From Polyangiaceae bacterium (GTDB lineage: Bacteria; Myxococcota_A; Polyangia; Polyangiales; Polyangiaceae), in assembly GCA_041389765.1 (NCBI GenBank), contig JAWKRE010000002.1, forward strand, positions 11,908-75,907: a stretch of 64,000 nucleotides of DNA. Reading direction: 5' to 3'. Below the pieces are notes generated by a model that was given only the letters and a program-made list of their open reading frames with translations, did no database searches and had not been told where the DNA came from. Position 1 is the stretch's first letter. Each line of letters begins with the position of its first letter. A program made the translations under genes and the position numbers. Positions 32,042 through 50,152 of this stretch are shown in pieces.

Positions 32042-33580
32042 CTAAAGCTGAAAGAAATTCTTGATCCGATCGATGAACTGCAAGCTCTTCAAGTCCGTAT
32101 CCCGGTCCCCCCCCGGCAGGTTCTCCGCGTGCTCATCCAGCATCATCTGCCGCTCTGCCAGCACCCGCGAAAGCTCCTGCACCATGTTCGGCGCCCCCTC
32201 CAGCACGTCGTGAAATGGCGCGTGCCCGATCACCATCAGCTCGCACTCCGTGATCGCCTTCACCGTCGCCTGCCGCCGCTCCCCCGTCACCAGCGCCATC
32301 TCCCCGAAGAACTGCCCCGGCCCCAGCCGCGTCACCTCGCTCGTCTGCTGCTTCGCCCCCGTCAGCAGCACCGCCACCGTCCCCCGCTCGATGATGAACA
32401 GCTCGTCCGCCTCCTCATCTTGCCGAACGATGATCTCCCCTGGCGAGAACAGCCGTGTCGTCGCCAGCGCCGCCAGCTTCCGCCGCACCTTCGCGTCCAG
32501 CACCGCCAGCACATCCACGTTCGCCAGCGCCCGCTCGCGCTTCTCGATCCGGTGCTCGTCCTCCCGCGCCCGCGTCTCCTCCGACACCTGATGCACATGC
32601 ACCGTCCGCTGCGGGAACGGGATCGCGAACCCCTTGCGATGCAGCGCGTAATAGATCCGATCCCGCACATCCCCATCGATCCGATCGCGCCGCTCGTAGT
32701 CCTCCGTCCAGAACCGCACCCAGTATTCGATCCCGCTATCCCCAAATTCCTTCGTCACCACGTTCGGCGCCGGCTCCACGAGCACCCCCGGTAGGTTCTC
32801 GAGCGCCGCCAGGATCGTCTCGTGCACCCGCCGCGGAGGCACCTCGTACGCCACGCTCACGTACACGCTCCGTCGCGACATCCGCGTCGGCTTCGTGAAG
32901 TTCACGATAGGCACCTTCGCCAGCAGCCCGTTCGGCACCACCACCTCGGTGTCATCGAGCGTGTGCACCTTCGTCGCCCGCCAGTTGATCTCCACCACTC
33001 GCCCGATGTGGCTCTTCTCCGAGTCGAACGCGACCCAGTCCCCCACATCGAACGGGCGCTGCATCTGGATCGACAGCCCCGCCACCAGGTTCCCCAGCGT
33101 CTCCTGCAGCGACAGACCGATCACCGCCGTCACCACCGCGCCTGTCGTCAGGATCGACCCCGGATCGAACCCCAGCGCCCGCAGCGCCCCCAGCAGCAGG
33201 AACATGTAAACGACCCCCTGCGCGATATCTCGCAGGATGGTCGGCACCGGCCGTTGCAGCCTCCGCCCCAGCAGCACCTCCAGCACCAGCAGCCCGAGCA
33301 GCCGCCCGATCCCGAACAGCAGCGCCACCAGCGACACGAACTTGATCGGCCCGAGCAGGCTCGACTCTTCCGGCACCAGGAGCCCGAGGATCAGCGCCCC
33401 GATGTGCACGAACAGAAAGAACGCCGGCACCCGCAAAAGCCGCTGGTCTTTCCGTGGCAACAGCGCCCGCGTCACCACGAACAGCACCACCGCGAACCCC
33501 AGCCCCACCAGCGCGAGCGCTGCCGAGCCCTTCAACAGATCGCGAAACTCCCTCTCAAGCGGCATCGGCGACCCGCGCAC
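32042..33580 (-). CDS. mechanosensitive ion channel (MscS family) with C-terminal cyclic-nucleotide-binding domain
   Basis: Several TM helices, then the MscS beta domain (VGDWVAFDSEKSHIGRVVEINWRATKVHTLDDTEVVVPNGLLAKVPIVNF). The cNMP-binding domain follows (FFGEMALVTGERRQATVKAITECELMVI). Confidence 0.85.
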   Translation of the reverse strand: MRGSPMPLEREFRDLLKGSAALALVGLGFAVVLFVVTRALLPRKDQRLLRVPAFFLFVHIGALILGLLVPEESSLLGPIKFVSLVALLFGIGRLLGLLVLEVLLGRRLQRPVPTILRDIAQGVVYMFLLLGALRALGFDPGSILTTGAVVTAVIGLSLQETLGNLVAGLSIQMQRPFDVGDWVAFDSEKSHIGRVVEINWRATKVHTLDDTEVVVPNGLLAKVPIVNFTKPTRMSRRSVYVSVAYEVPPRRVHETILAALENLPGVLVEPAPNVVTKEFGDSGIEYWVRFWTEDYERRDRIDGDVRDRIYYALHRKGFAIPFPQRTVHVHQVSEETRAREDEHRIEKRERALANVDVLAVLDAKVRRKLAALATTRLFSPGEIIVRQDEEADELFIIERGTVAVLLTGAKQQTSEVTRLGPGQFFGEMALVTGERRQATVKAITECELMVIGHAPFHDVLEGAPNMVQELSRVLAERQMMLDEHAENLPGGDRDTDLKSLQFIDRIKNFFQL

Positions 33581-33624
33581 GATCGCACGAAACGCCCCAC
33601 CTCACGCGCGCTAATCTGCCCCCC

Positions 33625-34328
<704 letters not shown>

Positions 34329-34332
<4 letters not shown>

Positions 34333-35843
34333 TGATCCCCCTCTCCTTCCGCACCAAGCTCCTCGTCAGCTACCTCGCCCTCGTCGCCTTCGTCGTCCTC
34401 CTCGCCACCTTCGAGCTCAACCGCTCCCTCGGCGAGGACCTCGTCCGCCAGCTCGACACCCGCCTCACTGCCCAGGCCGAGGGCGCCGCCCAGTGGATCG
34501 GCGCCGGCCGCCACCCCAACCGCCTCGCCTCCCGCCTCGCCGGAGTCGTCGGCGCCGAGATCGCCCTCATCGACAGCACTGGCCGTATCCTTGGATACGC
34601 CGACCCCAGGTCCCCCCCTGTCCGCAACACCCCCGGAGCCGCCGAGCCCGACACCCCGCCTCCCCCTCTCACCGACTCCGCCCCTCGCCCCGAGATCGAC
34701 TCTGCCCGCACCACAGGAAAAGGCTTCGCCACCCGCTCCGCCCCCGGCGGCCAGCCCATGCGCTACGTCGCCGTCGCCGCCCCCGGCGGCCTCGTCCTCC
34801 GCCTCGGAGTCCCCCTCTCCGGAGTCGAGGACACCTTGCGTTCCATGCGCACTCGCCTCCTCTTCGCCGCCGCCCTCGCCATGGCCGCCGCAGTCCTCCT
34901 CGGCATCGCCGCCTCCCGCCTCGTCGCCCGCCCTCTCCGCGAAATGTCCGCCGCCGCCCGCAAGATCGCCGCCGGCGACTACAAGGTTCGAGTCCCCGAC
35001 ACCACCCCTGACGAGCTCGGCGATCTCGCGAAAGCCCTCGCCTCCATGGCCACCCAGCTCGAATCCCGCATCGGCGATCTCACCGCCGAGCGCGACCGCC
35101 TCGAAGCCTTGCTCACCCAGGTCCGCCGCCTCGAAGTCGTCCGTCGCGACTTCATCGCCAACGTCTCCCACGAGCTCCGCACCCCTGTCACAGCCATCCA
35201 GGGCTACGCCGAGACCCTCCTCGAAGCCCCCCCCGACTCCCCGCTTCCCCCCGAGACCGCCTCTCGTTTCCTCGCCACCATTTACCGCCACGCCCAGCGC
35301 CTCGCCCGCCTCCTCGAAGACCTCCTCCAGCTAAGCTCCCTCGAATCCCGCCCTGAGGGTGACACTCCGAAGGAGCCAGTCCCCCTCCTCCCCCTCGCCC
35401 AGGAGGTCGCCGCCACCGTCCGCGACCGCTGCCGCGACCGCAAAGCCACTCTCACCCTCGAAGTCCCCGAAGACGCCATCGCCGAAGCCGACCCCGCCGC
35501 CCTCGAACAGGTATTGGAAAACCTCACCGACAACGCCCTCAAGCACACCCCCGAGGGGACCACCGTCACCCTCCGCGCCTCCCTCCACCCCACCACAGTC
35601 CGCATTCAGATCCTCGACACCGGCCCCGGCATCCCCCCCGAGCACCTCCCCCGCCTCTTCGAGCGCTTCTACCGCACCGACCCCTCCCGCTCCCGCGACC
35701 AGGGCGGCGCCGGCCTCGGCCTCGCCATCGTCAAGCACCTTGTCGAGCGCATGCAGGGCACCGTCACCGCGGACAGCACCCTCGGACAGGGCAGCACCTT
35801 CACCGTCACCCTGCCTCGCTCCACCGCGGATCGACCGTCCTGA
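34329..35843 (+). CDS. sensor histidine kinase (HAMP-HisKA-HATPase, PhoR-like)
   Basis: ATGA overlap with the regulator gene. Two TM helices, HAMP, H-box FIANVSHELRTPVTAIQGY, N-box LENLTDNALKHT and G-box GGAGLGLAIVKHLV. Confidence 0.85.
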
Positions 35844-35882
35844 CCTCCTCCCCCCGCCGAAACAGCCCCTCGAAGCAGGGCC

Positions 35883-37304
35883 TCACGATCTCCCGCACCG
35901 CCTGCCGTCGCAGCTCCAGCAGCGCAGTCGTCGAAAGCAGCCCATGCTCCGGCGCCACGATCTCCCCGAGTCAGCGACTCCCCCACCCCGCGCATCGCCT
36001 CTTCGAACACCCTCCGCGCCAGACTCACAGAGCTCCGGCCGCTCCGAGAGCATCCACGAGAGCGCCCGCCACCCCAGCTCCGCGTGCCGCCCCTCCTCCT
36101 CCGCGATCCGCCCCATCGCGGCCCTCACCGCCCGATCCCCCACCATCCCCGCGATCGCCAGCGCCTCCGCCGCCGCCACCGTCTCCCCCACGCAGGCCTC
36201 GCGCACCAGCGCCGCCACGATCTCCGCCGGATCCGTCGCCGGCACCACCCCTGTCACCGGCAGCCCCCCCGGCCCCACCGGCACGCCTGAATACGCGCTC
36301 GCCAGCCCGTAGCAGAGCCGCGCATGCCCCGTCTCATCCATCATGGCCTGTTGCGTCGCCAGCAAGAGATGAGGCGGCGCCCCCATCGCCAGGAGCTCCA
36401 GCGAGAACCGCGCAAAGCTCCCGATGCTCGCGTGCTCCATCGCCCCCATCGCCGCATAATGCTCCGCCAGCGCCCCCCGCACCTCGGCAGTCAGCCCCGC
36501 AGTCTCCGGCGCCATCTCCCCACCTGCCCAGTCCTCCCGCGCACACCTCGGCGCGACCCGGAGGCTCCCCTCCGCGAACAGCGGCCGCCCGATCGTACAC
36601 GTCTGATCGTGACACTCCCACGCCTCCGCCGCCCCCGTCTTCGCGCACTGCTCCCCTGCTGGACAGTCCTTGTCGGCCAGGCAGGCCCCGCCCCCATCCT
36701 GACAGTACAGCCACCGACTCTTCCCGCACCCGTCATCATAGATCGACAGCCCGCACTCCGCCCCCGGGCAATCCTCGCCAGAGTGGCAATCTCCCGCCGT
36801 CACGCACACCGGCGACGACGCGCCATCCACCCCCGCGCACATGCAAGCTGCCCCCGCCTCGCAGTCCTCATCTGTCGCGCACTCGTAATAGCACCCGCAC
36901 CCCGTGATCGTCCCAGGCCCTTGATACGTGTAGTGCTGGCAGTGCCCGTTCGGCAGCGCCGTACAATCCGCGTCCGTCACACACTGCAGCTCTTCCTCGT
37001 TCCCCTCGCACGTCTGCGTCGCCGTCAGCTCACAGGTGACCTTCTTCTCCCGATAGATCCTCCCGTCATCGCACTGCACGAACCCGCTCTCCTCCCCGCT
37101 CGGCTGCAAGATCGCCGTCGCCCCATCGCACGCCGCGGCTCCCCCGCCGCTCCCCCCGTCCCCCCCGGTCCCCACATTCCCATTCCCCCCACAGGCCGAC
37201 ACCGACACCCCGATCGCCGCCAGCAGCGCCCCCCGAAACCCCGCAAAAGAAAGCGAATTCGCGCCCATCGACCCCACCAAGCGCACCCGTGAAAAGCTCG
37301 TCAT
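35883..37304 (-). CDS. lipoprotein with Cys-rich N-terminal domain and ferritin-like diiron C-terminal domain
   Basis: ATG at 37302-37304 with GGAGG upstream. Lipobox GVSVSACGG. About 30 Cys in the first 230 aa. Then ExxH/DExxH/EExxH motifs (MEHASIGSF, MDETGHARL, EEEGRHAELGW). The last ~40 aa look low-complexity, so a frameshift near 36010 is possible. Confidence 0.55.
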   Translation of the reverse strand: MTSFSRVRLVGSMGANSLSFAGFRGALLAAIGVSVSACGGNGNVGTGGDGGSGGGAAACDGATAILQPSGEESGFVQCDDGRIYREKKVTCELTATQTCEGNEEELQCVTDADCTALPNGHCQHYTYQGPGTITGCGCYYECATDEDCEAGAACMCAGVDGASSPVCVTAGDCHSGEDCPGAECGLSIYDDGCGKSRWLYCQDGGGACLADKDCPAGEQCAKTGAAEAWECHDQTCTIGRPLFAEGSLRVAPRCAREDWAGGEMAPETAGLTAEVRGALAEHYAAMGAMEHASIGSFARFSLELLAMGAPPHLLLATQQAMMDETGHARLCYGLASAYSGVPVGPGGLPVTGVVPATDPAEIVAALVREACVGETVAAAEALAIAGMVGDRAVRAAMGRIAEEEGRHAELGWRALSWMLSERPELCESGAEGVRRGDARGGGVADSGRSWRRSMGCFRRLRCWSCDGRRCGRS

Positions 37305-37468
37305 CCTGAACCTCCACCCGGCAGGATAGCCTGTTTGGCGGCCCGGGTACCCTCCCGTCTCCAGATCGCCGCCCATCTCCAGGACTACCTGTCCCGCACA
37401 CCCCGCTTACCCATCCCGAAGCACATTCGTGATGGCGCCCCACCCCCGTTTCGAGCGACACTCCCCAC

Positions 37469-38278
37469 ATGCTCCCCCCGGGCGCCCCCCTCCTCCTCGC
37501 CCTCGCCTCTCTCCTCGCCGTCAATGCGGCCTGGCTCCACTACCTCTGGCTCATCCCGAAAGAGAAGGTCCCCGCCCGCCCCACAGGCCATCTCCTCGCC
37601 TTCGCGACAGCCTCTCTCGTCGCCACCGCCGCCGTCGTCACCGGCGCCCTCGCCCACACCTGGCTCACCCCCGCTCTCCTCGCCGCCCCCGCCCTCGGCC
37701 TCGCCGCCTTCTTCCTCTACCTCCTCCGCCAGGCCCCCCTGCCCGACACCCAGCTCACCGTCGCCGTCGGCTCCCCCCTCCCTCTCATCGAGGCCACTGC
37801 CCACGACGGCGGCCCCCGCAGCACCCGCGATCTCGCTGGCCAGCGCTTGCTCATCAAGTTCTTCCGCGGAAGCTGGTGACCGTACTGTTCCGCCGAGTTG
37901 CGGCGGTTCGCAGAGATGGCCCCTCTCCTCGACAGCCACCGTGTCCGCGTCCTCGCCCTGAGCACCGACACGGTCTCTCAGGCCGCCGCCCACAAGCAGC
38001 GCGACGCCCTCCCCTTCGATCTCCTCTCGGACTCTGACCTTCGTATCCTCCGCAAGCTCGGCCTCGTCCACGAGAAGGGCCTCGCCTTCAAGACATGGAC
38101 CCTCGCCGGCATCCCCCTCGGCGTCCCCTCCGGCAAGAAGAGCATGGCCATCCCCACAACCCTCCTCGTCGACGAACAAGGCATCATCCGCTGGATCGAC
38201 CAGGCCACCGACTACCGCATCCGCGGCGACGAGCACCGCATCACCGCCGCGCTCGCTGCGGTGTTCGGCGCGCCCTGA
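37469..38278 (+). CDS. membrane-anchored thioredoxin-fold redoxin (AhpC/TSA/Redoxin-like); candidate selenoprotein with U-P-Y-C active site read through an in-frame TGA at 37877-37879
   Basis: ORFs 37469..37879 and 37898..38278 share one frame and are separated only by TGA. Translation reads ...LIKFFRGSW-[TGA]-PYCSAELRRFAEMAPLLDSHRVRVLALSTD.... The TGA is exactly where the first Cys of the WCPYC redoxin motif should be. A 6-bp GC stem with AGUUG loop (37890..37906) lies 10 nt downstream at bacterial-SECIS-like spacing. Three N-terminal TM helices. Confidence 0.6.
37877..37906 (+). promoter_or_regulatory. in-frame UGA plus candidate bacterial SECIS hairpin (ccgccg-aguug-cggcgg)
   Basis: Hairpin stem 37890-37895/37901-37906 (6 G:C pairs), apical loop AGUUG with G/U at about +21 to +23 from the U of UGA. 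Comparable to the fdhF SECIS geometry as recalled from memory. Confidence 0.45.
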
Positions 38279-38311
38279 CGCTCACTCTCCGAACAGCACG
38301 GCACCCCCTCC

Positions 38312-38341
38312 CTTGTTGTCGCTTGAACGTGCGACAACAAG
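38312..38341 (+). terminator. perfect 11-bp inverted repeat hairpin (cttgttgtcgc-ttgaacgt-gcgacaacaag) just after the redoxin stop
   Basis: Seen directly in sequence. No U-tract follows, so it could be a terminator-like or operator element between the redoxin and Rpn genes. Confidence 0.4.
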
Positions 38342-38379
38342 CCAATTGCCGCCCTCTCTCTGCGTGATACGTAGTCGAC

Positions 38380-39459
38380 ATGCCGTCGACTCTGCACAAC
38401 GTCGTCACGGAGGTCGTGAAGGCCCACCCCGAGGTCCTTGAATACTTGCTGGCCCTCGCGGGGTCGCCGCCCGCAGGTCCGCTCCACGTCACGACGGACA
38501 CGCAGGCCCGCACCATCTCCGTGGAGCGGCGAGTCGACGTCGCGTTCCTCGTGGGCTCGACGAAGCGCCCATCCAGCTTCCTCCTTGTCGAGGTCCAGCT
38601 CGATCCCGACGAGAACAAGCGCTTCGAGTGGCCGTTCTACCTCGAGCTCTGGCGTTCTCGGCACCGGTGCGAGGGGGCCGTCGTGGTCCTGACCATCGCG
38701 GATCGCGTCCGCCGCTGGATCGACAGCGTGATTGTCCCCGCGTCCGGCGTCCACGGCACTTCTCGCCAGATGCGGCCCACCGTGGTCGCCCTCGACCAGA
38801 TCGCCCCCGCCCTCCTCCTGCGGAGCGAGCTGCCCTACCTCGCCCCCCTCGTGGTGGCGGGCCACATCCACGCGCCGGACGCCCCCGAGATCGCCGAACG
38901 CGCCCTCGATCTCACGGTCGCGACCCTTCCATTGCGCTTGGCAAGACCGCAGTTGGATGCCATCTTCGGCATGGCCAACGCCGCGCTACACGCGCGCTTA
39001 AAGAGGCGCCTCATGGACAACCCCACTTACCGCAGCGCGCTCTTCCGCAGCATCGCCGAAGAAGCAAGCGTCGAAGCCAGGGCAGAAGGCAAGGCCGAAG
39101 GCCTGGCAGAAGGCAAGGCCGAAGGCTTGGCAGAAGGCAAGGCCGAAGGCTTGGCAGAAGGCAAGGCCGAAGGCTTGGCAGAAGGCATGGCAGCCGCCGC
39201 GGCCAAGAGCCTCTTCTCCGTCTTCGCCGCCCGCAACCTCCCGGTGAGCGCCGCCGTGAAGGAGCGCATCGAGTCCTGCACCGACATCGCCCTCCTCGAT
39301 CTCTGGATCCAGCGCGCCGTCACTGCGAAGACCGCCCGCGCCGCGATCGCCTCGCCCCGCACGCAGCGCCCGCCCGCCAAGGCCCCCTCCGCCGCCAAAC
39401 AGGCCACCTCCCGCGGAACCAGCTCCAAGCCCCGCTCGCCATCCGCCAAGAAGAAGTAA
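38380..39459 (+). CDS. Rpn-family recombination-promoting nuclease/putative transposase (PD-(D/E)XK, YhgA-like) with C-terminal DUF4351 domain
   Basis: N-terminal nuclease core (RRVDVAFLVG...FLLVEVQLDPDENKRFEWPFYLELW = D...ExQ motif). Internal (EGKAEGLA)n repeats. C-terminal DUF4351-like CTDIALLDLWIQRAVTAKTARAAI. Confidence 0.7.
   Translation: MPSTLHNVVTEVVKAHPEVLEYLLALAGSPPAGPLHVTTDTQARTISVERRVDVAFLVGSTKRPSSFLLVEVQLDPDENKRFEWPFYLELWRSRHRCEGAVVVLTIADRVRRWIDSVIVPASGVHGTSRQMRPTVVALDQIAPALLLRSELPYLAPLVVAGHIHAPDAPEIAERALDLTVATLPLRLARPQLDAIFGMANAALHARLKRRLMDNPTYRSALFRSIAEEASVEARAEGKAEGLAEGKAEGLAEGKAEGLAEGKAEGLAEGMAAAAAKSLFSVFAARNLPVSAAVKERIESCTDIALLDLWIQRAVTAKTARAAIASPRTQRPPAKAPSAAKQATSRGTSSKPRSPSAKKK
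39080..39192 (+). repeat. 24-nt tandem repeat about 4.5 copies (encodes EGKAEGLA) inside the Rpn gene
   Basis: gcagaaggcaaggccgaaggcttg repeated, with one ctg/ttg variant. Confidence 0.85.
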
Positions 39460-39596
39460 CGCAGCCCACCGAGCGGACCCGGCCCAAGCTCCCGAGCCGC
39501 CGCCCACTCTTCCCGGAACGACTGGACTTCTCACTCAATTCGTCGGAGGCTGACGTCGGGTCGCGCCCACGCTCACCACCCTTCGGGTACGAGATC

Positions 39597-40157
39597 ATGG
39601 AGACCCACAACAAAGCCCGCCTTCTGCTTCAGTCCATCTTCGAAGAAGGCATCCTCGACGGCAAAGCAGAAGCTCGGGGCGAGCCTCCCGTCGAACAACC
39701 AGTATCCCGGGTCCCCGCCGTGCGGGTCACCTACTTCCCCGACGATCGCGTGCAAGTGCTCTACTACCATCGTGTGGTGCGCCCCCCCGCCTCCGCCCCC
39801 AAGTACCGCAGCGAGCTCTTCCAGAGCATCTACGTGGCCGGCAAGGAGTCCGGCAAGGCCCTGGTCAAGGCCGATGGCGTGGCGCTTGACATGGCCAAGG
39901 GCACGGCGCGATGCATCCTCCTCGTTCTCGACGCCCGCCGTATCCCGCCGAGCGATGCAGGGAAGGACATCATCCTCGGCTGCCGGGACCAAGCCATCCT
40001 GAACGAGTGGCTCACTCGTGCCGTCACCGCGGAGCTCATCCACGACGTCATCGCCCCCGCGTGTCGCCCCCCCGCCGAGTCCTCCTCCCCCGCCCCGAAA
40101 AAACAAGCCCCGTCCCGCAAGGTCGCCAAGAAGCGCGCGCCTCGCACCCAGCCCTGA
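39597..40157 (+). CDS. DUF4351-domain protein; 5'-truncated Rpn-family paralog retaining only the C-terminal region
   Basis: METHNKARLLLQSIFEEGILDGKAEARGE...ARCILLVLDARRIPPSDAGKDIILGCRDQAILNEWLTRAVTAELIHDVI parallels the C-terminus of the upstream Rpn gene. The upstream part of the same frame (ORF 38628..) is Arg/Pro/Gly-rich and was not examined for nuclease motifs. Confidence 0.5.
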   Translation: METHNKARLLLQSIFEEGILDGKAEARGEPPVEQPVSRVPAVRVTYFPDDRVQVLYYHRVVRPPASAPKYRSELFQSIYVAGKESGKALVKADGVALDMAKGTARCILLVLDARRIPPSDAGKDIILGCRDQAILNEWLTRAVTAELIHDVIAPACRPPAESSSPAPKKQAPSRKVAKKRAPRTQP

Positions 40158-40324
40158 ACCACCTGCGCCCCTCCGCGCGCCCGCCCCCACAAAACACCGA
40201 CAGCCTGCCCGCCCGCCTTGACACCGCATCTCCCCCACAAAGCACCGACAGCCTGCCCGCCCCCCCCGACATCCGGGTTGAGCAGACAGGCTGTCTGCAC
40301 TTCACCACTCTGTGAACGGTCAGC

Positions 40325-41713
40325 TCACTGGAGCGGATTGATGTTCACAATCCCATCCAGCGAAGGCCCGTTGTAGAGCTCCTGCACCCGCTTCATATCC
40401 CCCTTCGCCACCGCGAAGGCCACGGCCGCGCCGGCCGACGCGCTCGTCGCGTCGCTCGACTGGCCAGGCACGGTGTTGCCCGTCGACGGGTCGAAGCCGT
40501 CCACGTTGCCGTTCGCGCGGACGCCGCCGAACCAGCCAGTCTTCAGGTAGCCGTTGCCCATCGCATACAGCCAGTTGCTGTTCGCGGGGGTGCCGTCCGG
40601 CCAGCCGTTGTTGTTGCGCGGGTCCTTCGGGGTGTCCCCGTGGACCGTGATGACCACGTCGTCCGCGATCGTGCGCGTCGAGCAGAGCGGGTCCTGCTCC
40701 TCGCCGAGGTCCTTCAGGAACTGGTCGAGCATCTTGCCGAGCTGGGCGACCGTGCTGTTCAGCGTGCCCATGTTCTGGAACGCGCCGTGCGGATCGTCGC
40801 GCATCGCAGGCAAGATCACGCTCTGCGTGAGGCCCTTCTTGAACGCCTTGGACGCGGTGATCAGAATACGGCCAATCTGAGAGAGCTTGTTGGGCGTGCC
40901 CGCGTTGATGCCGAATCGCATCAGGTCGTCCGCCGTGGGCTCCAGATCCTTCGCCAGGTTCTGTCCGAGGAAGTTCGCCGCCGTCTTGCCGACGCGCAGC
41001 GGGCGCTGCATCGTCGAGCGCGCAGCGGCCTTGTTCATGCCGAGGAACGCCTTGTAATACGCCTCGTACATCGCGGCGTCCTGCGGCACGCTCAGGATCT
41101 CGCGCGAAGCAGCGCTGTTGAAGAGCTGCACGAGCCCGTCCGCGTCGCCGACGGTGGCGATGTCCGGCGCGCCCTTCGCGTTGCCGAAGTTCACCGGGTT
41201 CACGCCGATGACGGGCAGGAGAGAGGGAGTCGAGCGCTGGATGGAGGCGCACGCCGCGAGCATGCCAGTCCCGCCGCCGAGCTGCGCGGCCGACCCCGGA
41301 GTCGGCGTGTGCGTCTGGTTCGTCCCGGCCATGAACGCGGTGATCCGCTTGCCCTTGTCCAGGTCCTGCCAGGGCGCCTCGGGCGTCAGCTCGAAGTCCT
41401 TGTCCGTGTCCTGCGCCTTCACCGACTTCCCGAACGCGTGGAACGCGAACCCCTGATTGTTCGACCGCGCGATGTCGATGTGCGGCCACAGGAGCTGGAA
41501 CCAGGCGAAACCGCCGTCGCCCGCCACGATGTGGACCGACCGCATCGTCAGCGCACAGGACCCCTCGTCCGCGAGCGCGGTGCCGCCCGAGTCCGAGATC
41601 ACGTTCAGCACGTTCGCGCGATCCACGGCCAGCGCCGCGCCGGCGGCCGTCGCCCAGCGGAGGAAGTTGCGGCGAGAGCGACCTTCCAGGTTCTTCAGCC
41701 TATCGTCGACCAT
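40325..41713 (-). CDS. Tat-signal secreted protein, DUF1552-like (partner of DUF1588-type proteins)
   Basis: Twin-arginine motif SRRNFLRWATAAGAALAV. 462-aa non-repetitive sequence. Genomic pairing with a CxxCH DUF1588-like gene as in Planctomycetes and Myxococcota. DUF number is from memory and tentative. Confidence 0.6.
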   Translation of the reverse strand: MVDDRLKNLEGRSRRNFLRWATAAGAALAVDRANVLNVISDSGGTALADEGSCALTMRSVHIVAGDGGFAWFQLLWPHIDIARSNNQGFAFHAFGKSVKAQDTDKDFELTPEAPWQDLDKGKRITAFMAGTNQTHTPTPGSAAQLGGGTGMLAACASIQRSTPSLLPVIGVNPVNFGNAKGAPDIATVGDADGLVQLFNSAASREILSVPQDAAMYEAYYKAFLGMNKAAARSTMQRPLRVGKTAANFLGQNLAKDLEPTADDLMRFGINAGTPNKLSQIGRILITASKAFKKGLTQSVILPAMRDDPHGAFQNMGTLNSTVAQLGKMLDQFLKDLGEEQDPLCSTRTIADDVVITVHGDTPKDPRNNNGWPDGTPANSNWLYAMGNGYLKTGWFGGVRANGNVDGFDPSTGNTVPGQSSDATSASAGAAVAFAVAKGDMKRVQELYNGPSLDGIVNINPLQ

Positions 41714-41725
41714 GACATTCCTCCG

Positions 41726-42460
41726 TCACTCGCAAGAGTGCACAGCACTCATCAGAGCTGCGATTGCAACCTTCTTGCCAGTCTCCACATCGGAGGAGTT
41801 GGCGACGGCGCTGTTGCAGATGGCCACGTGCTCGGCGGTCGCCGGCTTGCCCATCATGCAGGTGAGCGCGTCCGCGTTGCAGTGGTTCTCCTCGTCGAAC
41901 ACCTGCGGCCCGACCCCGTCGATCTGGCACTGAGGCATGTTCGGCAGGTTCGCGATGATCTCCGGCGCCGCCTGCACCCAGATGTCGAACATCTTCGCCG
42001 CGCCCGCCGCCGTCCACACGATCGCCTCCCCCACGCGGGCGTCGTAGTTCGCCGAGCCGAGCGCCCCTGTCCCTTCCTTCACGAGCTGCCCGGCCGTCGG
42101 CGGGTTGCCCGTCGCGTCCAGGTTCACCCCGAGGCTCGACAGGATGTTTCGCAGCGTCGTGATCTGCAGCTTCTGGCACGAGTGGAGGCGCGTCCGGATC
42201 TCCGCCGGCCCCTCTTCCTCGCGCTGCTTCAGCACCTCGAACGCGTCCTTGGGGGCCTCGTCGCCGAGCCCCGCCATGTGATCGAACGTGTTGTCCGGCC
42301 CGCCGGCATAAGCCCCGTCCTTCTCTTCCACGTTGTTCGTGGGGTCTTCCTGATAAGGGCTGTGGGGCGGCGGGTTCACCTTGTCAGGGCGGCTGTCGCA
42401 GGCTGCGGCCGAGAGGCCGCAAGCGACGGCGAGCGAAATCACGATCTTCGTCGTCTTCAT
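41726..42460 (-). CDS. hypothetical lipoprotein
   Basis: Lipobox ISLAVACGLSAAACDS. 244 aa with several Cys pairs. Lies between the DUF1552-like and DUF1588-like genes. Confidence 0.55.
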   Translation of the reverse strand: MKTTKIVISLAVACGLSAAACDSRPDKVNPPPHSPYQEDPTNNVEEKDGAYAGGPDNTFDHMAGLGDEAPKDAFEVLKQREEEGPAEIRTRLHSCQKLQITTLRNILSSLGVNLDATGNPPTAGQLVKEGTGALGSANYDARVGEAIVWTAAGAAKMFDIWVQAAPEIIANLPNMPQCQIDGVGPQVFDEENHCNADALTCMMGKPATAEHVAICNSAVANSSDVETGKKVAIAALMSAVHSCE

Positions 42461-42474
42461 GGCTTGCTCCTCTC

Positions 42475-43668
42475 CTAGAACCGCACGAAGTCGGCGCTCT
42501 TGAAGATCGACGCGAGCGTCGCCTTCAGGTTGAGGCCGTTCTGGTAGTAGGTGATCATGTACTCGTCGAGCACCTCGTAAGGCACAGTCGCGAGGTCATT
42601 GACGATGTCCTCTTTGGACATCGCGAAGTTGTAGAGCCTTGAGACCGCGCACTCGCCCACGTCCGGGTCGCTCGCCACCGCCTGCCCCAGCTCCGCCAGG
42701 TCCGCCACCGGCTCGCCGAAGCGCCACGCCGTCGTCTCCCCCGGCTTCAGCCAGTGCGAGATCTCCGTCGTCACCGGCGTCGCCGTCGGCGTCATCACGC
42801 TGATCCCGTTCTGCCACTTGCCGTTCTGGTCGAAGTTCCCGAACAGCGGCGCGATGTGGTTGATCGAAGTGTGGCAGTTCGCGCACACGACGCTCTGCGT
42901 ATCCTGGAAGTCGATCGGCTCCGTCGCGATCGACTCGAACGCCCACGGAGAGATGTAGTCCGCGCCGCCCTTCGACACCGGCTTGTCCGAGTACTCCGCC
43001 GGGAACTTCGTACAGACGAAGACCTCCTGCAGCCACCGCACGCGCCGGAACGCCATGCTCCCGTAGAACTGATAGTTCATCCCCGGGTTGGTCAGCACGC
43101 CCGCCTCGACAGGAGCGCCGCTGTTGCACTCGCCGTCGGTGAAGGTCTTGGTGTTGCCGTCGTATTCAGGGCAGTTGTTCGAGCCCTGCGTGAACAGGTC
43201 GGTGAAGGGCTTCCCCTCGACCGTGATGCGCGCCGCCAGGTTGGGCGCCGTGTTCCGGCTCGGCTTCCCGTCGGCCGCGCCGCCCGCGAGCCGCATCGTG
43301 TCGCGCCAGAACTTGATCATCCGGTCCGTGAACCGGCCATCTTCCAGCATCTTGTCGATCTCTTCTTCGTACGCCCGCTTCGGGTCCGGCGCGTTCTGGA
43401 CCTTCTTGATCTGCTCCAGTGTCGGCAGGGCGCGCACGATCTTGATCGACGCCGTCCGCAGCGCTTCGCTGTAGTCCTTCACGCGCTCATCGAGCACGGT
43501 GTGAGTCACCTCGGGCCGACTCGCCTCCGGGTTCTCCGGGGTCGGCAGAGCGGGCTTGTCGTCCCCATCACTGCCAGTCTCACTCCCCGTCCCAGGAGCG
43601 GTCTCACACGCCGTCACCGCGAGCGCCGCGCTCGCCAGGAGGCCGAAGATCATCGAGATCCGTCGCAT
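42475..43668 (-). CDS. DUF1588/DUF1592-like lipoprotein with a c-type-cytochrome-like CxxCH motif
   Basis: ATG at 43666-43668. Lipobox LAVTACET. The VVCANCHTSINHIAPLFGNFD motif is characteristic of the Planctomycete-type DUF1585-1595 family. The upstream 95 codons of ORF 42475..43953 are low-complexity. Confidence 0.6.
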   Translation of the reverse strand: MRRISMIFGLLASAALAVTACETAPGTGSETGSDGDDKPALPTPENPEASRPEVTHTVLDERVKDYSEALRTASIKIVRALPTLEQIKKVQNAPDPKRAYEEEIDKMLEDGRFTDRMIKFWRDTMRLAGGAADGKPSRNTAPNLAARITVEGKPFTDLFTQGSNNCPEYDGNTKTFTDGECNSGAPVEAGVLTNPGMNYQFYGSMAFRRVRWLQEVFVCTKFPAEYSDKPVSKGGADYISPWAFESIATEPIDFQDTQSVVCANCHTSINHIAPLFGNFDQNGKWQNGISVMTPTATPVTTEISHWLKPGETTAWRFGEPVADLAELGQAVASDPDVGECAVSRLYNFAMSKEDIVNDLATVPYEVLDEYMITYYQNGLNLKATLASIFKSADFVRF

Positions 43669-44349
43669 ACAGCGCCAACCTTTCACAAGAGGCTCCCCTC
43701 CACCGTCGCAACCCTCGTGCCACCAAGAAATCCACGAATCCCAGGATTTTTCCGCTCCCGTTGTCGCCGAAAGCCCAGCTCCAGGCCCAATCCCAGGACC
43801 ATCCCCCACAACCTGGATCATCAAAAATCCATCCCCGGTCCCTCCCCGACCACCCACTCGCCCCATCGCCTGCGCCCCATCGACTCGCCCCCGCCGCCAC
43901 CGCGCTCGCTGCCCCACCCTGAACCGATGTCCGCCGTTTCGAGCCGGGTGCAATGAGGCTCAAGTCGAGGATGAGGGCGAAGCCGAAGTCCCGGCCCCGT
44001 GCTCGTCGAAGCTCTCCAAGAGGTCCACTGCCCCCCACCGCGCTCGTCGTCCGCTCCGCTCCCTCCTCGCTTCCGCGCCCCCCCGGCGCCGTGCTCGCGG
44101 TCTCCGCCCGCTGCGCGCGTGCGGGGGGCGCCCGCCGCCTGTATTCAGACGATAATACACCTCGCGGATTCGTGGACCGGAGAGGGCCCCCGCCCCCGCG
44201 GCGTCAGCGTGACCGTGTTCGTGGACGGAGAGCGCGAGGACAGGTAAAGACGAAACGTCGACTCTCATTGATCGAGCCGAGCGAGGAAGATCGCTGTTGG
44301 GGGAGCCGCGAGGGGGTGGCGCATGCCTTGCAAAAATCGCCGGCAACCC

Positions 44350-45066
44350 ATGAAAACAGCGACGTTTGCCCCCACGAGCCCTCACCGACGTGCAGACCGC
44401 CTCTCGAAGCGTGCAGTCCGCCGCACAGCGGCGCGTGCGGCCCTCCTCACGGGGCTCGGGCTCGCGGCGCTGACTCCCTCGTTCGCCCGCGCCGAGCCGC
44501 CGGGCCCCGCGCCCGTTCCGGCGCCTCCGCTGGGCTGTCCGCCGGCCGCCGCCGGGTCCGCGCCTGCGCCTGGCTGTCCGCAGCCGGCGGCTCCTCCGAA
44601 CGGGGTGTGGGCGGCTCCTCAGCCCATCGATCCGGTCACGGCGGCCTATCTTGACGAATACGACAAGGAGCAGGGCGAGCGGGCGCGGAGCAAGGCTCGC
44701 CGCGCGGATCCCCCGGAGCTGGTGAACAACGCCGAATATCAGCGGCTGAAGGGGCAGCGGAACGCCGGGATTGTCATGCTGTCGGTGGGCGGCATGGGGG
44801 TGCTCGTGGGCGCGGTCTGGCTGATCAGCGCCAGTCTCCGACACTGGGATCTCTTCAAGGGGTCCGAACCGGACCGCAGCGGTCAGGCCGGGGCCGGCGT
44901 CATGATGGGGCTGAGCGCCTCCACGATGGTCGCCGGAGGGGTCCTCCTCGGGGTGTCCAGGTCCGGCATGAAAGAGATGCGCGAGCGGTATTTCACGGTG
45001 GGGCAGGGGCTGTCGTTCGATGTCCACGTCGGGCTCGGGTCTGCGGGGATCTCCGGCTCGTTCTGA
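44350..45066 (+). CDS. hypothetical secreted/membrane protein
   Basis: MKTATFAPTSPHRRADRLSKRAVRRTAARAALLTGLGLAALTPSFARA signal-like region, Pro/Ala-rich segment, and two C-terminal hydrophobic helices. Preferred over the antisense 774-aa Arg/Pro ORF. Confidence 0.45.
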   Translation: MKTATFAPTSPHRRADRLSKRAVRRTAARAALLTGLGLAALTPSFARAEPPGPAPVPAPPLGCPPAAAGSAPAPGCPQPAAPPNGVWAAPQPIDPVTAAYLDEYDKEQGERARSKARRADPPELVNNAEYQRLKGQRNAGIVMLSVGGMGVLVGAVWLISASLRHWDLFKGSEPDRSGQAGAGVMMGLSASTMVAGGVLLGVSRSGMKEMRERYFTVGQGLSFDVHVGLGSAGISGSF

Positions 45067-45195
45067 CGCGAGGCGCGCGAGGGCTCCGGCGCGAGGGGCC
45101 GAGAGCGCGCGGGCGTCGGGGGCGAGAGACGCGGAGCCTCGCGAGGAGGGCGTGGGAGGGCTTCGTCGCGCGGGGAGGCGTGGTATCGTCCGCGA

Positions 45196-46137
45196 ATGAG
45201 GCGTGTCGCGACTCCGCTGCTGGCCACACTGGCGCTCTCCTGCGCGCAGGCGAGCGAGGAGCCGGCGGGGGCTGTCGTGGTCGGGATCACCGCGGACTTC
45301 CAGCCAGGGCCCGACATCGCGCGGCTCTCGGCCGATGTGCGGGTCGATGGGGAGCTGTTCGATTCGCGGGTGTGGATCGCGAAGGGCTCTCCGGAGCTTT
45401 CGTTTCCGCTGGAGCTCCCGGTCTCGGGGCTGGCGGACGGTGCGCGGGTCGATGTCGAGCTGCTCGGGTTCGAGACCATGGGGGAGAACGAGGCGCCGTT
45501 CGTGCGGCGCGACGCGGCGACAGCCATCCTCGTGGGGCAGACACTGCTCCTCCGGGCACACATGGAGTGGGAGTGCGTGCCGAGCTTTCACCTCCCGGGC
45601 GGCGAGCTGGCGCCGACCTGCGCGAGCCCGCTGACGTGCGTCGCCGCCGGCTGCGAGGACCCCTTTGTCGACCCGTCGAAGCTCTCTCCGTATTCCATCG
45701 ACTGGGCGGTGGACTATGCGGACGAGTGCAGGCCAGAAGACGCGGGCGAGCCGGCGGTGGAGGTGGGGCGAGGGCTGGAGTCGTTCGAGGCCCTCGCGCC
45801 CGGAGGGCCGGTGCCGATGGTGAAGGGGCCGCAAGGGGGATTTCATGTGTGGCTCGCGCTGCGCGCGCGGAACCTGCACCGGCAAGGGTCGGTGACGCAT
45901 CTCCAGGTGACGCGGCAAGACTCGGGAGAGGAGCTCTGCGCGGTGGAGGTGCCGTGGGACTTCGAGCCTTCGGGGGACGGGAGCTGCGATCTGGCAGGGA
46001 TCCAGTGTGTCGTGAGCTACGATGTCGCGGGGGCGGCGGCGCTCACCGGGCAGGCGGCGCTCGTCTCGGCGAAGGTGGTCGACTCGACAGGGGATGTCGG
46101 GTTCGGCGAGCAGGTGGTCACTCTGTCGGTGGAGTGA
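45196..46137 (+). CDS. hypothetical lipoprotein
   Basis: Signal/lipobox MRRVATPLLATLALSCAQAS. 313 aa, non-repetitive, several conserved-looking Cys. Confidence 0.55.
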   Translation: MRRVATPLLATLALSCAQASEEPAGAVVVGITADFQPGPDIARLSADVRVDGELFDSRVWIAKGSPELSFPLELPVSGLADGARVDVELLGFETMGENEAPFVRRDAATAILVGQTLLLRAHMEWECVPSFHLPGGELAPTCASPLTCVAAGCEDPFVDPSKLSPYSIDWAVDYADECRPEDAGEPAVEVGRGLESFEALAPGGPVPMVKGPQGGFHVWLALRARNLHRQGSVTHLQVTRQDSGEELCAVEVPWDFEPSGDGSCDLAGIQCVVSYDVAGAAALTGQAALVSAKVVDSTGDVGFGEQVVTLSVE

Positions 46138-46186
46138 GCGGGGCAGGGGAGGGGAGGGAGAGTGGCAGTCTGAGGAGGCGGCGAGA

Positions 46187-47950
46187 TCAGGGGACGACGG
46201 ACCTGCGGGCCACCTTGTGCAGGAGAGTGACGAGGTCGGCCACGTCGAAGGGCTTCTCGATGTAGCGGTTGGCCACGTTCTCAAGGAACTCGCGGGCGTT
46301 CCGCGTGAAGGCGCCGCCGGTCATGAAGACCATGCGGGGGAGGAGCTCGGGGGCCTCGCGCTGCACCCACGCGTGGACCTGCATGCCAGAGGTGTCGGGC
46401 ATCATGAGATCGCAGAGGATGACGTCGTAGTCGCGGGCGGTGATGAGGAGATCGAAGGCGGCGGTGCCGGACTCGGCGAGCACCACCTCGAAGCGATCTT
46501 CCAGGAGGGCGGCGAGGGTGGAGCGGAGGGTGCTCTCGTCGTCGATCACGAGCACGCGCGGGCGGCGGGCCTCGTTCGCGAGCGGGATCTGCGTGCTCGG
46601 CGGCGAGAGGCCGGCGTCGGCGACCTCGCCGACAGGGAGGTGGATCGTCAGCTTGGTGCCGCGGCCAACCTCGCTCTCCACGTCGATGCGACCGCCGTGC
46701 GCGCGCACGATGTCGCGGCAGATCGAGAGGCCGAGGCCCGCGCCCTGGCCGCGCTCCTTCGTGGTGAAGAAGGGATCGAAGAGGCGCTGGAGGTGCTCGG
46801 GCGCGATGCCGTGGCCCGTGTCGGCGACGGCGATGCGCACCTCGCCGGCGTCGTGCGAGGTGGTGACGCGCACGGTGTTGCGCTCGGGCGCGCCCTCGTC
46901 GATGGCGTGCGCGGCGTTCACGAGCAGGTTGAGGAAGACCTGCGAGAGGCGGCCCTCGTTCGCGGAGACGAGGGGGAGATCGCCGTAGCTGCGGACGACG
47001 CCGGCGCGGAAGCGGAGCTCGTTCGCGGCGATGTCGAGGACCTTGTCGAGCAGCGTGTTCACGTCGACGGGGCCGAGGCTGTCGTGCTCGACACGCGCAA
47101 ACGCCTTCAGATCTCGGGCGATCCGGCCCACCTGGCGGGCGCCCTCGGTGGCGGTCTGCGCGCGCTCCACGAGCATCTCCAGGGCCGCGAGCGCGCGCGC
47201 GCCGCCCCCGCGCTCGAAGAGGTCCGTCGCGCGATCTTCCCCCAGCTCGCAGGCGAGCTCGTCGCGAAGGTTGGAGAGCGAGCGGGTCACCTGGGGGAGC
47301 TCGGTGCGCAGGCGCTCCAGGTTGAGGAGCACGTACGTGATGGGGTTGTTGACCTCGTGCGCGACGCTCGCCGCGAGCATGCCCATGCTCGCGAGCTGAT
47401 CGCGCTGCGCGAGCTCGGCGAGGAGCTGGCGCTTCTCGGTGACGTCGTTCGCGACGGCGGCGACCGCGGGCTCGCCCTCCCACAGCACCTGGATGCCCGT
47501 GACCTCGGCGACGAACATGCTCCCGTCGCGCCGCAACATGCGCCGCTCGCGCATGGGGAGCGCGTTGTTGCCGCCCTCGATCGCGCGCACCCGGCGCTGG
47601 CTGATCTTGCGCTCGTCGGGGTGGATGAGGTCCATGACGTCGATGCCGGCGAGGCTCTTGAGGCTGTCGTAGCCGTGCATCCGCACCGCGGCGGGGTTGG
47701 CGTAAACGACGCGCCCGGCGCGGTGGACGATGACGGCGTCGGGCAGCGTCTCGATCAGCGAGCGGAAGCTCTCCTCGGAGCGCACGGGCGGCGAGGGATC
47801 GGATGGGGCGCGGGGCGGGGGATCGCTGTCGCGGCGCGACGTGTCGGCGGGGCGCGCGACGTCCTCGCGAACGCTTGCCAGCGCCGCCTCCCCCCCACGA
47901 TCCGGAAGGTCGTCATCGCGCCCCTGCATCACGCGGCGGACTCCTAGCAC
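46187..47950 (-). CDS. hybrid sensor histidine kinase/response regulator (PAS-HisKA-HATPase-REC)
   Basis: PAS region (FRSLIETLPDAVIVHRAG...). H-box LAASVAHEVNNPITYV. N/G boxes NLLVNAAHAI, GAGLGLSICRDIV. C-terminal receiver domain (RVLVIDDESTLR...VILCDLMMPDTSG). Confidence 0.85.
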   Translation of the reverse strand: MLGVRRVMQGRDDDLPDRGGEAALASVREDVARPADTSRRDSDPPPRAPSDPSPPVRSEESFRSLIETLPDAVIVHRAGRVVYANPAAVRMHGYDSLKSLAGIDVMDLIHPDERKISQRRVRAIEGGNNALPMRERRMLRRDGSMFVAEVTGIQVLWEGEPAVAAVANDVTEKRQLLAELAQRDQLASMGMLAASVAHEVNNPITYVLLNLERLRTELPQVTRSLSNLRDELACELGEDRATDLFERGGGARALAALEMLVERAQTATEGARQVGRIARDLKAFARVEHDSLGPVDVNTLLDKVLDIAANELRFRAGVVRSYGDLPLVSANEGRLSQVFLNLLVNAAHAIDEGAPERNTVRVTTSHDAGEVRIAVADTGHGIAPEHLQRLFDPFFTTKERGQGAGLGLSICRDIVRAHGGRIDVESEVGRGTKLTIHLPVGEVADAGLSPPSTQIPLANEARRPRVLVIDDESTLRSTLAALLEDRFEVVLAESGTAAFDLLITARDYDVILCDLMMPDTSGMQVHAWVQREAPELLPRMVFMTGGAFTRNAREFLENVANRYIEKPFDVADLVTLLHKVARRSVVP

Positions 47951-47959
47951 TTTGCGGCG

Positions 47960-50152
47960 ATGGCGGCACCGGCTTCCCCGCGCCGGTTGCCGGTGCTACT
48001 CCCCCCACCCCCCGCAGCCATGGCCACGCCGAGCCCCGAGTCCCCGCAGCCTTCGAGAGTCCTCCGGCTCGGGGAGGCGTGCGTGTTCGGCGTGTGTGTC
48101 GGCGCGCTCGCCGCCGTGCCCACCGCGCTCCGCACGACCGCGCACGGCGCCGGCTTCTTCGACGGGCTCATCATCGGGGTCGCGGCGCTGCTGCCGCTCG
48201 TGACGCTGTCGATCGTGATGCTGCGCGCGGCAGGGCGGGGGATCCGTGGGCTCATCGGGCAAGCGCCTAACCGCTCGATTGTGCTGCGGATTGCGCTGTG
48301 GGTGGGGCTCGCGCTGCCGGCGCTCTCGGTGCTGGCGACGCTGCTGAAGGCGGTCACGCACCACCGCGGGCTCGGGGGCGCGACGTTCGGTGTGTTCGGC
48401 CTCGCGGCGGTCGCGGGCTCGGCGCTCGTCGCGTACAGGCTCGTCGATCTCGGGGAGACGCTCGCCGCGCGGGGGGTGCAGTCGTGGGTGCTCGCGGCGA
48501 TCGGCGCGGCGATCGGCGTGGCGCCGGTGCTGGTGGTCGCGGGTCCGCTCGCGGGGCCTGCGGCGGGCGCTGTCGGGGCGGCGATCGTGGACGGGCTCAT
48601 CGCGGCGATCGCGATGGCGCTCGTCGTCACCGTCGATATCGGAGAACGGTGGCGGAGGCTCGCGGGGCTGTGGGGGATCCCGTTCGCGGGCATCGTCCTC
48701 GTGACGGCGACCGTTCGCGTGGAGGCGACTCCGCAGGTGGGGCGCGCTGTCCAGGCGGGCGGCGGGCTCCCGGCGACCTTGCTGCACGGGCTGGAGAGCT
48801 GGACCGATCGCGACGGCGACGGCGAGGGCGCGCACTTCGGCGGCTCCGACTGCGACGAGGGCGACCCCGCGCGCAGCTCGCGCGCCGTCGAGATCCCCGG
48901 TGACGGCATCGATCAGGACTGCGACGGCGCGGACCTCCCGGCTGCGGGCGCGGCGGCGGCGGTCCCCACCGCGCAGGCTTCGGCGAGCGCAGCCGCGTCG
49001 AGCGCCGCTCCTGCGACGCCCTCGGCTTCTGCTTCGGCGGCGTCTCCCTCGGGCGGCAAGCCCGACATCCTGCTCATCACGGTGGACTCGCTGCGCGCGG
49101 ATCGAAGCTCTGCGTACGGCTACGAGAAGGCCACGACCCCGCACATCGCCGAGGTCGCGCAACGCGGCGCCTTGTTCGAGCGCGCCTATGCGGCGGCGAG
49201 CGACACGCAGCGCGCCTATGCGCCCATCGTCACGGGCCGGCGCTTCGCGGCTGCGGCGCGGGACAAGCGCGAGTGGCCCACCTTCCTCTCGGACAACGAC
49301 ACCCTCGCCGAGCGGCTTCACCGCGCCGGATACGTCACCGCGGCGGTCACGTCGTTCACGTGGCTGAGCAGCGAGCGCGGCTTCGATCAGGGCTTCGATC
49401 GCTTCGAGACCGTCTACAAGGAGGCGCACCCCGAGCGCGGCGTCACCGGGCCTCACACGGTCCGCGCGGCGCGCAAGATCCTGAGCGATCTCCAGGACCG
49501 CGCGCAGCCCCTCTTCGTGTGGGTCCACCTCTTCGACGCGCACGAAAAATACATGGATCACAAGGGGATCGACTTCGGCAAGGGCCGCTCCGGCGCCTAC
49601 GACGGCGAGGTCGCATTCGTCGATCAGATGATCGGGAACCTGCTCGACACGGTGGCCAAGAGCTCGCGCGCCGGCCGCACGGTGATCGCGATCCACGGCA
49701 CCAACGGCGAGGGGCTCGGCGAGCACGAGGTGAACGGGCACAACGGCGAGCTGTTCGAGGAGATGCTGCGCGTCCCGTTCGTGCTGTCGGTCCCAGGGGC
49801 CTCTGCGCGCAAGATCCCGTCGCCCGTGAGCATCGTGGACCTCGCCCCCACCCTGCTCGAAATCGGCGGCGCCGACCGCAAGGACACGGACGGGACCTCG
49901 CTCCTCCCGCTCGTCCGCGGCGACGAGGGGGCCACCGCGGGGCCGGTCGCTGTGCGATCGAAGAAAGGAGCGGCCTTGATCGACGGCTCGCTCAAGCTCA
50001 TGGTTCTTGAACGCAAGAAGGGTGATCTCTCCTTGCTCTTCGATCTTGCGGCCGACCCGGGCGAAAAAACGGATCTCGCGCCCGAGCGCGCCGCCGACAT
50101 CGAGCGCCTCACCAAGCTCCTCGGTGACATCGAGGGTGACTCGACGAAGTGA
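47960..50152 (+). CDS. membrane-anchored sulfatase-like hydrolase/transferase (alkaline phosphatase superfamily)
   Basis: About 300 aa of TM helices, then PDILLITVDSLRADRSSAYGY...VWVHLFDAHEKY...GRTVIAIHGTNGEGLGEH. The canonical sulfatase C/S-x-P-x-R motif is absent, so it is more like LtaS/EptA-type transferases. Confidence 0.75.
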   Translation: MAAPASPRRLPVLLPPPPAAMATPSPESPQPSRVLRLGEACVFGVCVGALAAVPTALRTTAHGAGFFDGLIIGVAALLPLVTLSIVMLRAAGRGIRGLIGQAPNRSIVLRIALWVGLALPALSVLATLLKAVTHHRGLGGATFGVFGLAAVAGSALVAYRLVDLGETLAARGVQSWVLAAIGAAIGVAPVLVVAGPLAGPAAGAVGAAIVDGLIAAIAMALVVTVDIGERWRRLAGLWGIPFAGIVLVTATVRVEATPQVGRAVQAGGGLPATLLHGLESWTDRDGDGEGAHFGGSDCDEGDPARSSRAVEIPGDGIDQDCDGADLPAAGAAAAVPTAQASASAAASSAAPATPSASASAASPSGGKPDILLITVDSLRADRSSAYGYEKATTPHIAEVAQRGALFERAYAAASDTQRAYAPIVTGRRFAAAARDKREWPTFLSDNDTLAERLHRAGYVTAAVTSFTWLSSERGFDQGFDRFETVYKEAHPERGVTGPHTVRAARKILSDLQDRAQPLFVWVHLFDAHEKYMDHKGIDFGKGRSGAYDGEVAFVDQMIGNLLDTVAKSSRAGRTVIAIHGTNGEGLGEHEVNGHNGELFEEMLRVPFVLSVPGASARKIPSPVSIVDLAPTLLEIGGADRKDTDGTSLLPLVRGDEGATAGPVAVRSKKGAALIDGSLKLMVLERKKGDLSLLFDLAADPGEKTDLAPERAADIERLTKLLGDIEGDSTK

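Follow-up and report, generated by a model that had tools for sequence, protein, structure and literature searches.

An in-frame TGA as candidate selenocysteine codon in the gene of a membrane-anchored UxxC redoxin from a Polyangiaceae bacterium

The plus-strand region 37469..38278 of the window (the whole 64-kb stretch of DNA analysed here) raises the question whether two genes lie one behind the other, or whether one gene contains a stop codon that is decoded as selenocysteine (Sec). The first-pass annotation had described two open reading frames (ORFs) in the same frame, parted only by the TGA at 37877-37879, and this description held: a single frame of 269 codons runs from the ATG at 37469 to the TGA stop at 38276-38278, and its sole internal in-frame TGA is the one at 37877-37879. 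We regard the region as one gene for a 269-aa selenoprotein whose internal TGA specifies Sec, with a probability of about 0.85. The read-through product of 269 amino acids contains the stretch ...LLIKFFRGSW-U-PYCSAELRRF..., and the features of the gene are as follows.

37469..37876, plus strand: first part of the coding sequence (codons 1-136), with three transmembrane helices and the first redoxin strands, up to ...FFRGSW
37481-37546, 37592-37648 and 37670-37726, plus strand: the transmembrane helices of this first part, seen as hydrophobic segments (residues 5-26, 42-60 and 68-86)
37766-38194, plus strand: AhpC-TSA domain by Pfam match (residues 100-242)
37877..37879, plus strand: in-frame TGA, the proposed Sec codon U137, first position of the U-P-Y-C redox motif
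37880..38278, plus strand: second part of the coding sequence (codons 138-269 and the TGA stop at 38276-38278), with the remainder of the AhpC-TSA/Redoxin domain
37886-37888, plus strand: TGT codon of C140, the second redox residue of U-P-Y-C
37890..37906, plus strand: bSECIS-type hairpin within the coding sequence (codons S-A-E-L-R-R), assigned by comparison and by published bSECIS criteria

The domain match does not end at the TGA. The Pfam AhpC-TSA match extends across it over residues 100-242 (E 5.6e-25, 88.1 bits against a cut-off of 26), as does the match to Redoxin (PF08534, E 9.5e-17), and with the three hydrophobic segments in front of this domain the earlier proposal of a membrane-anchored redoxin on read-through was borne out. 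The codon bias, claimed to be kept in the downstream half, is indeed the same on both sides (GC3 0.89 before and 0.89 after the TGA, in a window of 71% GC).

Protein search of 5.8 billion sequences returned 51 relatives of the redoxin, mostly of 260-283 aa and with the same architecture. It was clearly demonstrated that the residue replaced by the TGA is a cysteine: all 22 full-length homologues aligned (260-283 aa) have Cys in this column, where it is the first Cys of an invariant W-C-P-Y-C, and Cys at column 137 is invariant across 44 homologues. The placement of the stop on the first Cys of a CxxC motif, for which an alignment of this kind had been suggested as a check, was thereby confirmed. 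The same column is occupied by TGA in 11 other relatives (L001, L003, L004, L094, L105, L113, L120, L133, L164, L172 and L178). The protein P0032 corresponds to a C-terminal half only, and its contig, L001, reads through the TGA at this column; L003 (a Nannocystales MAG) and L004 (a Pseudomonadales MAG) are the two loci with TGA among the eight closest in a scan of species-representative genomes. In metagenomes the DNA pattern [FY]RGxW-TGA-PYC was found on at least 120 contigs, nearly all with a frame that is open before as well as after the TGA. Among the 120 matches listed, 116 of the [FY]RGxW-U-PYC ORFs were homologous to the window protein at E < 1e-5 and eight belonged to the same membrane-anchored subfamily, the closest subfamily relative among the matches listed being L133, with 62% amino acid identity to the window protein. 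In an unbootstrapped neighbour-joining tree, Sec-forms turn up between Cys-forms at no fewer than five places; this branching suggests repeated Sec/Cys switching within the subfamily.

The hairpin noticed earlier, a 6-bp all-GC stem with an AGUUG loop starting 10 nt past the UGA, was found at 37890-37906 as described: CCGCCG (37890-37895) and CGGCGG (37901-37906) enclose the 5-nt loop AGTTG (37896-37900), with a dG of -11.1 kcal/mol. By itself this hairpin is unremarkable and within chance in DNA of 71% GC, as the 71-nt fold around it reached only z = -0.95 in a shuffle test and the surrounding 1151 nt contain 33 inverted repeats of 6 nt or more, so that its significance derives only from the comparative evidence. 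The extended lower stem of the 71-nt fold is not conserved in the relatives and was dropped from the element, and a scan of the window at the Rfam gathering thresholds gave no match.

Among the Sec-forms (the window gene and its 11 relatives) a stem of 6-7 bp is present in 12 of 12, with dG values from -8.9 to -12.1 kcal/mol, and the loop is A-G-U-U-G/A (AGUUR) in every one of them, 16 nt after the UGA. Counted from the T of the TGA, bases 12-18 pair with bases 30-24 around this loop, the stem being 7 bp long in most relatives compared with 6 bp in the window. The stem is absent from all 11 Cys-forms of the subfamily (Fisher p = 7e-7), six of which code for the same xAELRR peptide. Accompanying this, the Leu codon in the loop is TTG or TTA in 12/12 Sec-forms against 1/11 Cys-forms (p = 1e-5), although TTG is rare in the window (5% of Leu codons), and the Cys-forms use CTG or CTC for Leu and CGC for Arg at the hairpin site. 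The contrast of the Sec-forms with Cys-forms of identical peptide sequence shows, therefore, that the element is written with synonymous codons. Over the wider superfamily, a hairpin of -8 kcal/mol or lower occurs in 61% of 94 Sec-forms versus 6% of 84 Cys-forms, and at a GC content of at least 0.6 in 76% versus 10% (Mann-Whitney p = 4e-10).

The stem also covaries. Across the Sec-forms 95% of the cells are paired and double-sided changes occur in three pairs; pair 14/30 is seen as GC, UA, CG and GU, and pair 18/26 has changed from CG to UA twice, coupled to an Arg-to-Gln replacement. This covariation score was matched by none of 500 shuffles, and slid controls scored far lower. A leave-one-out covariance model, built from the 11 other Sec-forms with the window left out, found positions 37877-37912 in the 64-kb window with 51.5 bits (E 8e-13), the runner-up having 9.2 bits, and gave 8-27 bits at the homologous sites of the Cys-forms.

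The bSECIS model of Zhang & Gladyshev (2005), in the form quoted in Fig. 2 of PMC13188914, asks for an upper stem of 4-16 bp and an apical loop of 3-9 nt, the loop lying 16-37 nt from the UGA and having a G within its first two positions (as a rule with G or U as the next base), and for a minimum free energy of -7.5 kcal/mol or lower. The window hairpin agrees with all four constraints, having a 5-nt loop on a 6-bp stem, G-U at loop positions 2-3, a sufficiently low energy (-11.1 kcal/mol) and a spacing of 16 nt (37880-37895), which is the lower limit of the range. Like the bacterial SECIS consensus and the SECIS of E. coli fdhF, it is a stem-loop that lies within the ORF right behind the UGA, with a small apical loop, G then U at positions 2-3 and dG at or below -7.5 kcal/mol; unlike them it is compact, with 6-7 bp and without a conserved lower helix, and its spacing is the minimum that the consensus allows. 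A hairpin that fits the published model, that is present in all Sec-forms and in no Cys-form of the subfamily, and that covaries is, as far as comparison of sequences can establish it, a SECIS element, in agreement with the first-pass annotation.

Whether the organism is able to decode Sec has to be considered separately, since neither selA, selB, selD nor tRNA-Sec was found within the 64-kb window; ARAGORN detected no tRNA or tRNA-Sec there, nor in the 11 Sec-form loci. The AroA protein of the window is about 70% identical to those of Sorangium, Chondromyces and Minicystis. According to Table S2 of Peng et al. 2016 the Sec users include Haliangium, Plesiocystis, Myxococcus and Stigmatella, and Sorangium and Chondromyces, cultured Polyangiaceae, are absent from them; our literature search on Sec use in Polyangiaceae found nothing specific. 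The absence of these two genera would fit a relic selenoprotein gene, that is, one in a lineage which has lost its Sec machinery, so that ribosomes now terminate at codon 137 and the gene has died recently. The annotation of a second assembly, L208 (GCA_041389705.1, JAWKRI010000215.1, "Polyangiaceae bacterium"), reached by a search with the neighbouring genes, would fit it as well, as NCBI gives there the 136-aa N-terminal piece only. We consider this alternative improbable, because the gene does not look like a dead one. The downstream ORF is intact over 132 codons with its GC3 of 0.89, and the SECIS element is without flaw, down to the rare TTG codon. Between L208 and 32993-47174 of the window (99.4% identity) there are 88 differences, none of which falls in 37300-38400, where the TGA and the hairpin are identical; thus the gene has acquired no substitution, in spite of the 88 differences in its vicinity. 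Furthermore, dN/dS against L133 is as low downstream of the UGA (0.18, 0.296/1.68) as upstream (0.29, 0.365/1.24), with dS saturated, and judged by these ratios both halves of the gene are under purifying selection. The earlier claim that the downstream half is conserved and not a dead gene was supported by these values. If the gene is functional, it implies Sec decoding by this Polyangiaceae-like myxobacterium.

An ordinary pseudogene or a sequencing or assembly error, in which a Cys codon TGC or TGT was mutated to or misread as TGA, would take one base change, and MAG assemblies do contain errors. Nevertheless, the same TGA is present in the independent assembly L208 and at the same column in the 11 divergent relatives, and a random nonsense mutation is not expected to be accompanied by a Sec-specific hairpin that is absent from the Cys-forms, so this explanation is very improbable.

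It is just as hard to believe that there are two genes, one for a 136-aa membrane protein and a second for a redoxin fragment of 120-126 aa re-initiated at the TTG 37898 or the ATG 37916, even though gene callers yield exactly these halves. A protein started there would contain neither the redox motif nor the first beta-strands of the fold, and every Cys homologue is one full-length polypeptide. Four relatives, L004, L133, L172 and L178, have TTA, which is no start codon, in place of the TTG, and the ATG 37916 is not conserved; what is conserved instead is the frame and the hairpin. Finally, low-level UGA read-through occurs in many bacteria, yet a genome-wide reassignment of UGA to Trp or Gly, or a near-cognate insertion of Cys or Trp, deserves hardly any credence, as UGA is not reassigned (TGA terminates 25 of the 31 window genes), the whole 64-kb window has one credible in-frame TGA, at 37877-37879, and simple read-through needs no conserved SelB-type hairpin with a GU loop.

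With Sec decoding as the preferred reading, the insertion can be pictured from the position of the hairpin. The ribosome would reach UGA-137 with the AGUUG loop presented 16 nt after the UGA, the hairpin would recruit SelB-GTP-Sec-tRNA(Sec) and Sec would be inserted at position 137, whereupon the ribosome would melt the hairpin and translate the stem-loop as S-A-E-L-R-R. The resulting active site, U137-P-Y-C140, would form a thioredoxin-like UxxC centre on a peroxiredoxin (Prx) scaffold.

The scaffold was modelled by AF2 on the Cys homologue P0002, as a stand-in for the window protein. The model (pLDDT 94.5) has a Prx fold with transmembrane helices 4-25, 36-60 and 62-87 and the CxxC at the start of a long helix, and its nearest folds in the PDB are Bcp4, BcpB, AhpE and BCP (target TM-scores 0.82-0.88). 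Sequence alignment to BCP (5enu) places C140 at the peroxidatic Cys and U137 at the catalytic Thr of PxxxTxxC, and the Pro position of this motif is taken by the invariant Arg133. Since Thr is replaced by U or Cys and Pro by Arg within a Prx fold, the protein is best described as a Prx-scaffold redoxin with a thioredoxin-like UxxC and not as a canonical peroxiredoxin. The loop 29-41 is rich in K and R, and R87 follows the third transmembrane helix; by the positive-inside rule this suggests an N-out, C-in topology, with the redox domain held at the membrane on the cytoplasmic side. The predicted redox cycle is most likely one between the selenol/thiol and the selenenylsulfide forms, by which the protein, with a putative substrate and a putative reductant, would act as a thiol:disulfide oxidoreductase or as a peroxidase at the membrane.

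Comparison with the families already described brings this protein close to the "Prx-like thiol:disulfide oxidoreductase" (PF00578, UxxC/UxxU), a predicted prokaryotic selenoprotein family (PMC13188914 Table 1, PMC9312934, PMC1794560) that was predicted by Kryukov & Gladyshev 2004, is represented by WP_010940744.1 of Geobacter sulfurreducens, and is found in Geobacter, Syntrophus and Desulfotalea. The window gene has what the published definition of this family names, a PF00578 domain together with UxxC (U137-P-Y-C140), and by domain and motif, with WP_010940744.1 compared by description only, it appears to be a member of this already described UxxC AhpC/TSA selenoprotein class. The two are alike in the AhpC-TSA domain, in Sec as the first residue of UxxC, in the existence of Cys homologues, and in a SECIS element immediately downstream within the coding sequence. 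They differ in that the subfamily of the window gene has an N-terminal anchor of three transmembrane helices, the signature KFFRGxW-U-PYCxAELRR and its own compact AGUUR hairpin, and that the gene comes from a Polyangiaceae MAG and not from anaerobic Desulfuromonadales or Syntrophales. Likewise, the "Redoxin family protein" selenoprotein (PF08534, UxxC) of marine metagenomes (PMC13188914 Table 1), an entry compared by description only, shares with the window protein the PF08534 match and the UxxC motif.

Sec peroxiredoxins (Prx/PrxU, PxxxTxxU) share the fold, the nearest solved structures being Bcp, AhpE and PrxQ, but there Sec is the peroxidatic residue, whose position in the window protein is held by Cys140, and the Sec of the window protein replaces the catalytic Thr three residues upstream, with Arg133 in place of the Pro. 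Of the features of a canonical peroxiredoxin, the peroxidatic Cys at the first turn of helix alpha-2 is present (C140, by its alignment with BCP 5enu), whereas the catalytic Thr and Pro of PxxxTxxC are absent (U137 and Arg133). TlpA, ResA and DsbE are similarly membrane-anchored and have a WCxxC motif which starts helix alpha-1; however, they have a single anchor, a periplasmic domain and a thioredoxin-like fold, in contrast to the three helices, the predicted cytoplasmic domain and the Prx-type fold of the window protein. No NCBIfam model reached its cut-off in a scan with the window protein (PrxU 20 bits against 270, TlpA 26 against 230, ResA 24 against 170, DsbE 21 against 123).

The three-helix anchor is without mention in the selenoprotein catalogues consulted. 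A further reading, which we put forward tentatively and at less than even odds, is that the gene represents a distinct membrane-tethered UxxC Prx-like subfamily (three transmembrane helices, KFFRGxW-U-PYCxAELRR), not singled out in these catalogues, with a minimal SECIS element lying in the conserved A-E-L-R-R codons and with Sec and Cys interleaved at five or more places of the tree. If it is true, repeated Sec/Cys switching would have been possible through one TGA/TGY change and about three synonymous changes, and Sec decoding would be extended to the Polyangiaceae, a family without cultured members on the list of Sec users. Independently of this, the window gene gives the UxxC redoxin selenoproteins a membrane-anchored representative. 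The current understanding of selenoproteins is left unchanged by it; the public records merely annotate a truncated product wrongly.

Such truncation seems to be common in the subfamily. An exhaustive phmmer search of a 1.8-billion-protein library was carried out with the C-terminal half; among the best 25 representative clusters, which were inspected, about nine consist of proteins of 112-128 aa beginning just after the CxxC, several of them with the loop's Leu-TTG as their first codon ("MRRWEEL", "LRRFEH"). They are probably further split Sec-forms. Since L208 is called as a 136-aa fragment and about 9 of the 25 best clusters look like C-terminal halves, a sizeable part of the subfamily is probably split systematically in the databases. 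In P0191, P0195, P0219 and P0227, as at 37898 of the window, the TTG of the SECIS loop has been taken for the start of the spurious downstream half, and because of this habit of gene callers entries which begin with M/L-[RQ]-R-[FW] are a simple mining signature for split Sec-forms of the subfamily. The locus L004 (Pseudomonadales MAG PW6.metabat2.7, about 2700-3120) has a normal redoxin domain and hairpin, and its frame is broken upstream, at the expected transmembrane anchor, by several stops; this interruption may be a frameshift, or the locus may encode a truncated soluble variant.

Concerning the genomic neighbourhood, no conserved partner gene was recognized, as the window neighbours were not found beside other Sec-form genes. 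The Cys-forms P0030 and P0033 (loci L204 and L205) are divergently transcribed from a gene of a TetR-family regulator, and no such regulator flanks the redoxin gene of the window. A screen of the window for a second selenoprotein gene yielded antisense artefacts only, and the same-frame ORF pairs 11868/12810, 18532/19189, 40325/41726 and 44272/45067 were rejected as separate genes or as pairs without a domain across the junction. The minus strand carries at 1837-3579 a 580-aa ORF with a CMD/AhpD-like domain and without in-frame TGA; this family has Sec members elsewhere (CxxU).

Beginning 34 nt past the redoxin stop, a perfect 11-bp inverted repeat with an 8-nt loop is located on the plus strand at 38312-38341 (CTTGTTGTCGC / GCGACAACAAG). 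The repeat lacks a T tract, and the terminator scan did not report it; it may be a hairpin at a transcript end, and its assignment to the redoxin gene is uncertain. The adjoining plus-strand ORFs 38380-39459 and about 39560-40157 have similar C-terminal modules, the first ORF with a run of tandem (K)AEGLAEG repeats, and in both no Pfam family was found above the cut-off, only a weak match to Yae1_N. On the other side of the redoxin gene, the segment 35500-36500 contains a cluster of 48 of the 88 differences from L208, in the 3' part of the gene of a ferritin-like lipoprotein (35883-37376, minus strand) and in the region just downstream; due to this clustering the homologue P0318 is only 82% identical over 65% coverage, and either hypervariability of the segment or a fault of assembly may lie behind it. 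Farther away, at 47948-51246 on the plus strand, the gene of a sulfatase that has a MopE-like metal-binding motif precedes one for an FGE-sulfatase (formylglycine-generating enzyme), and the two look like a maturation pair.
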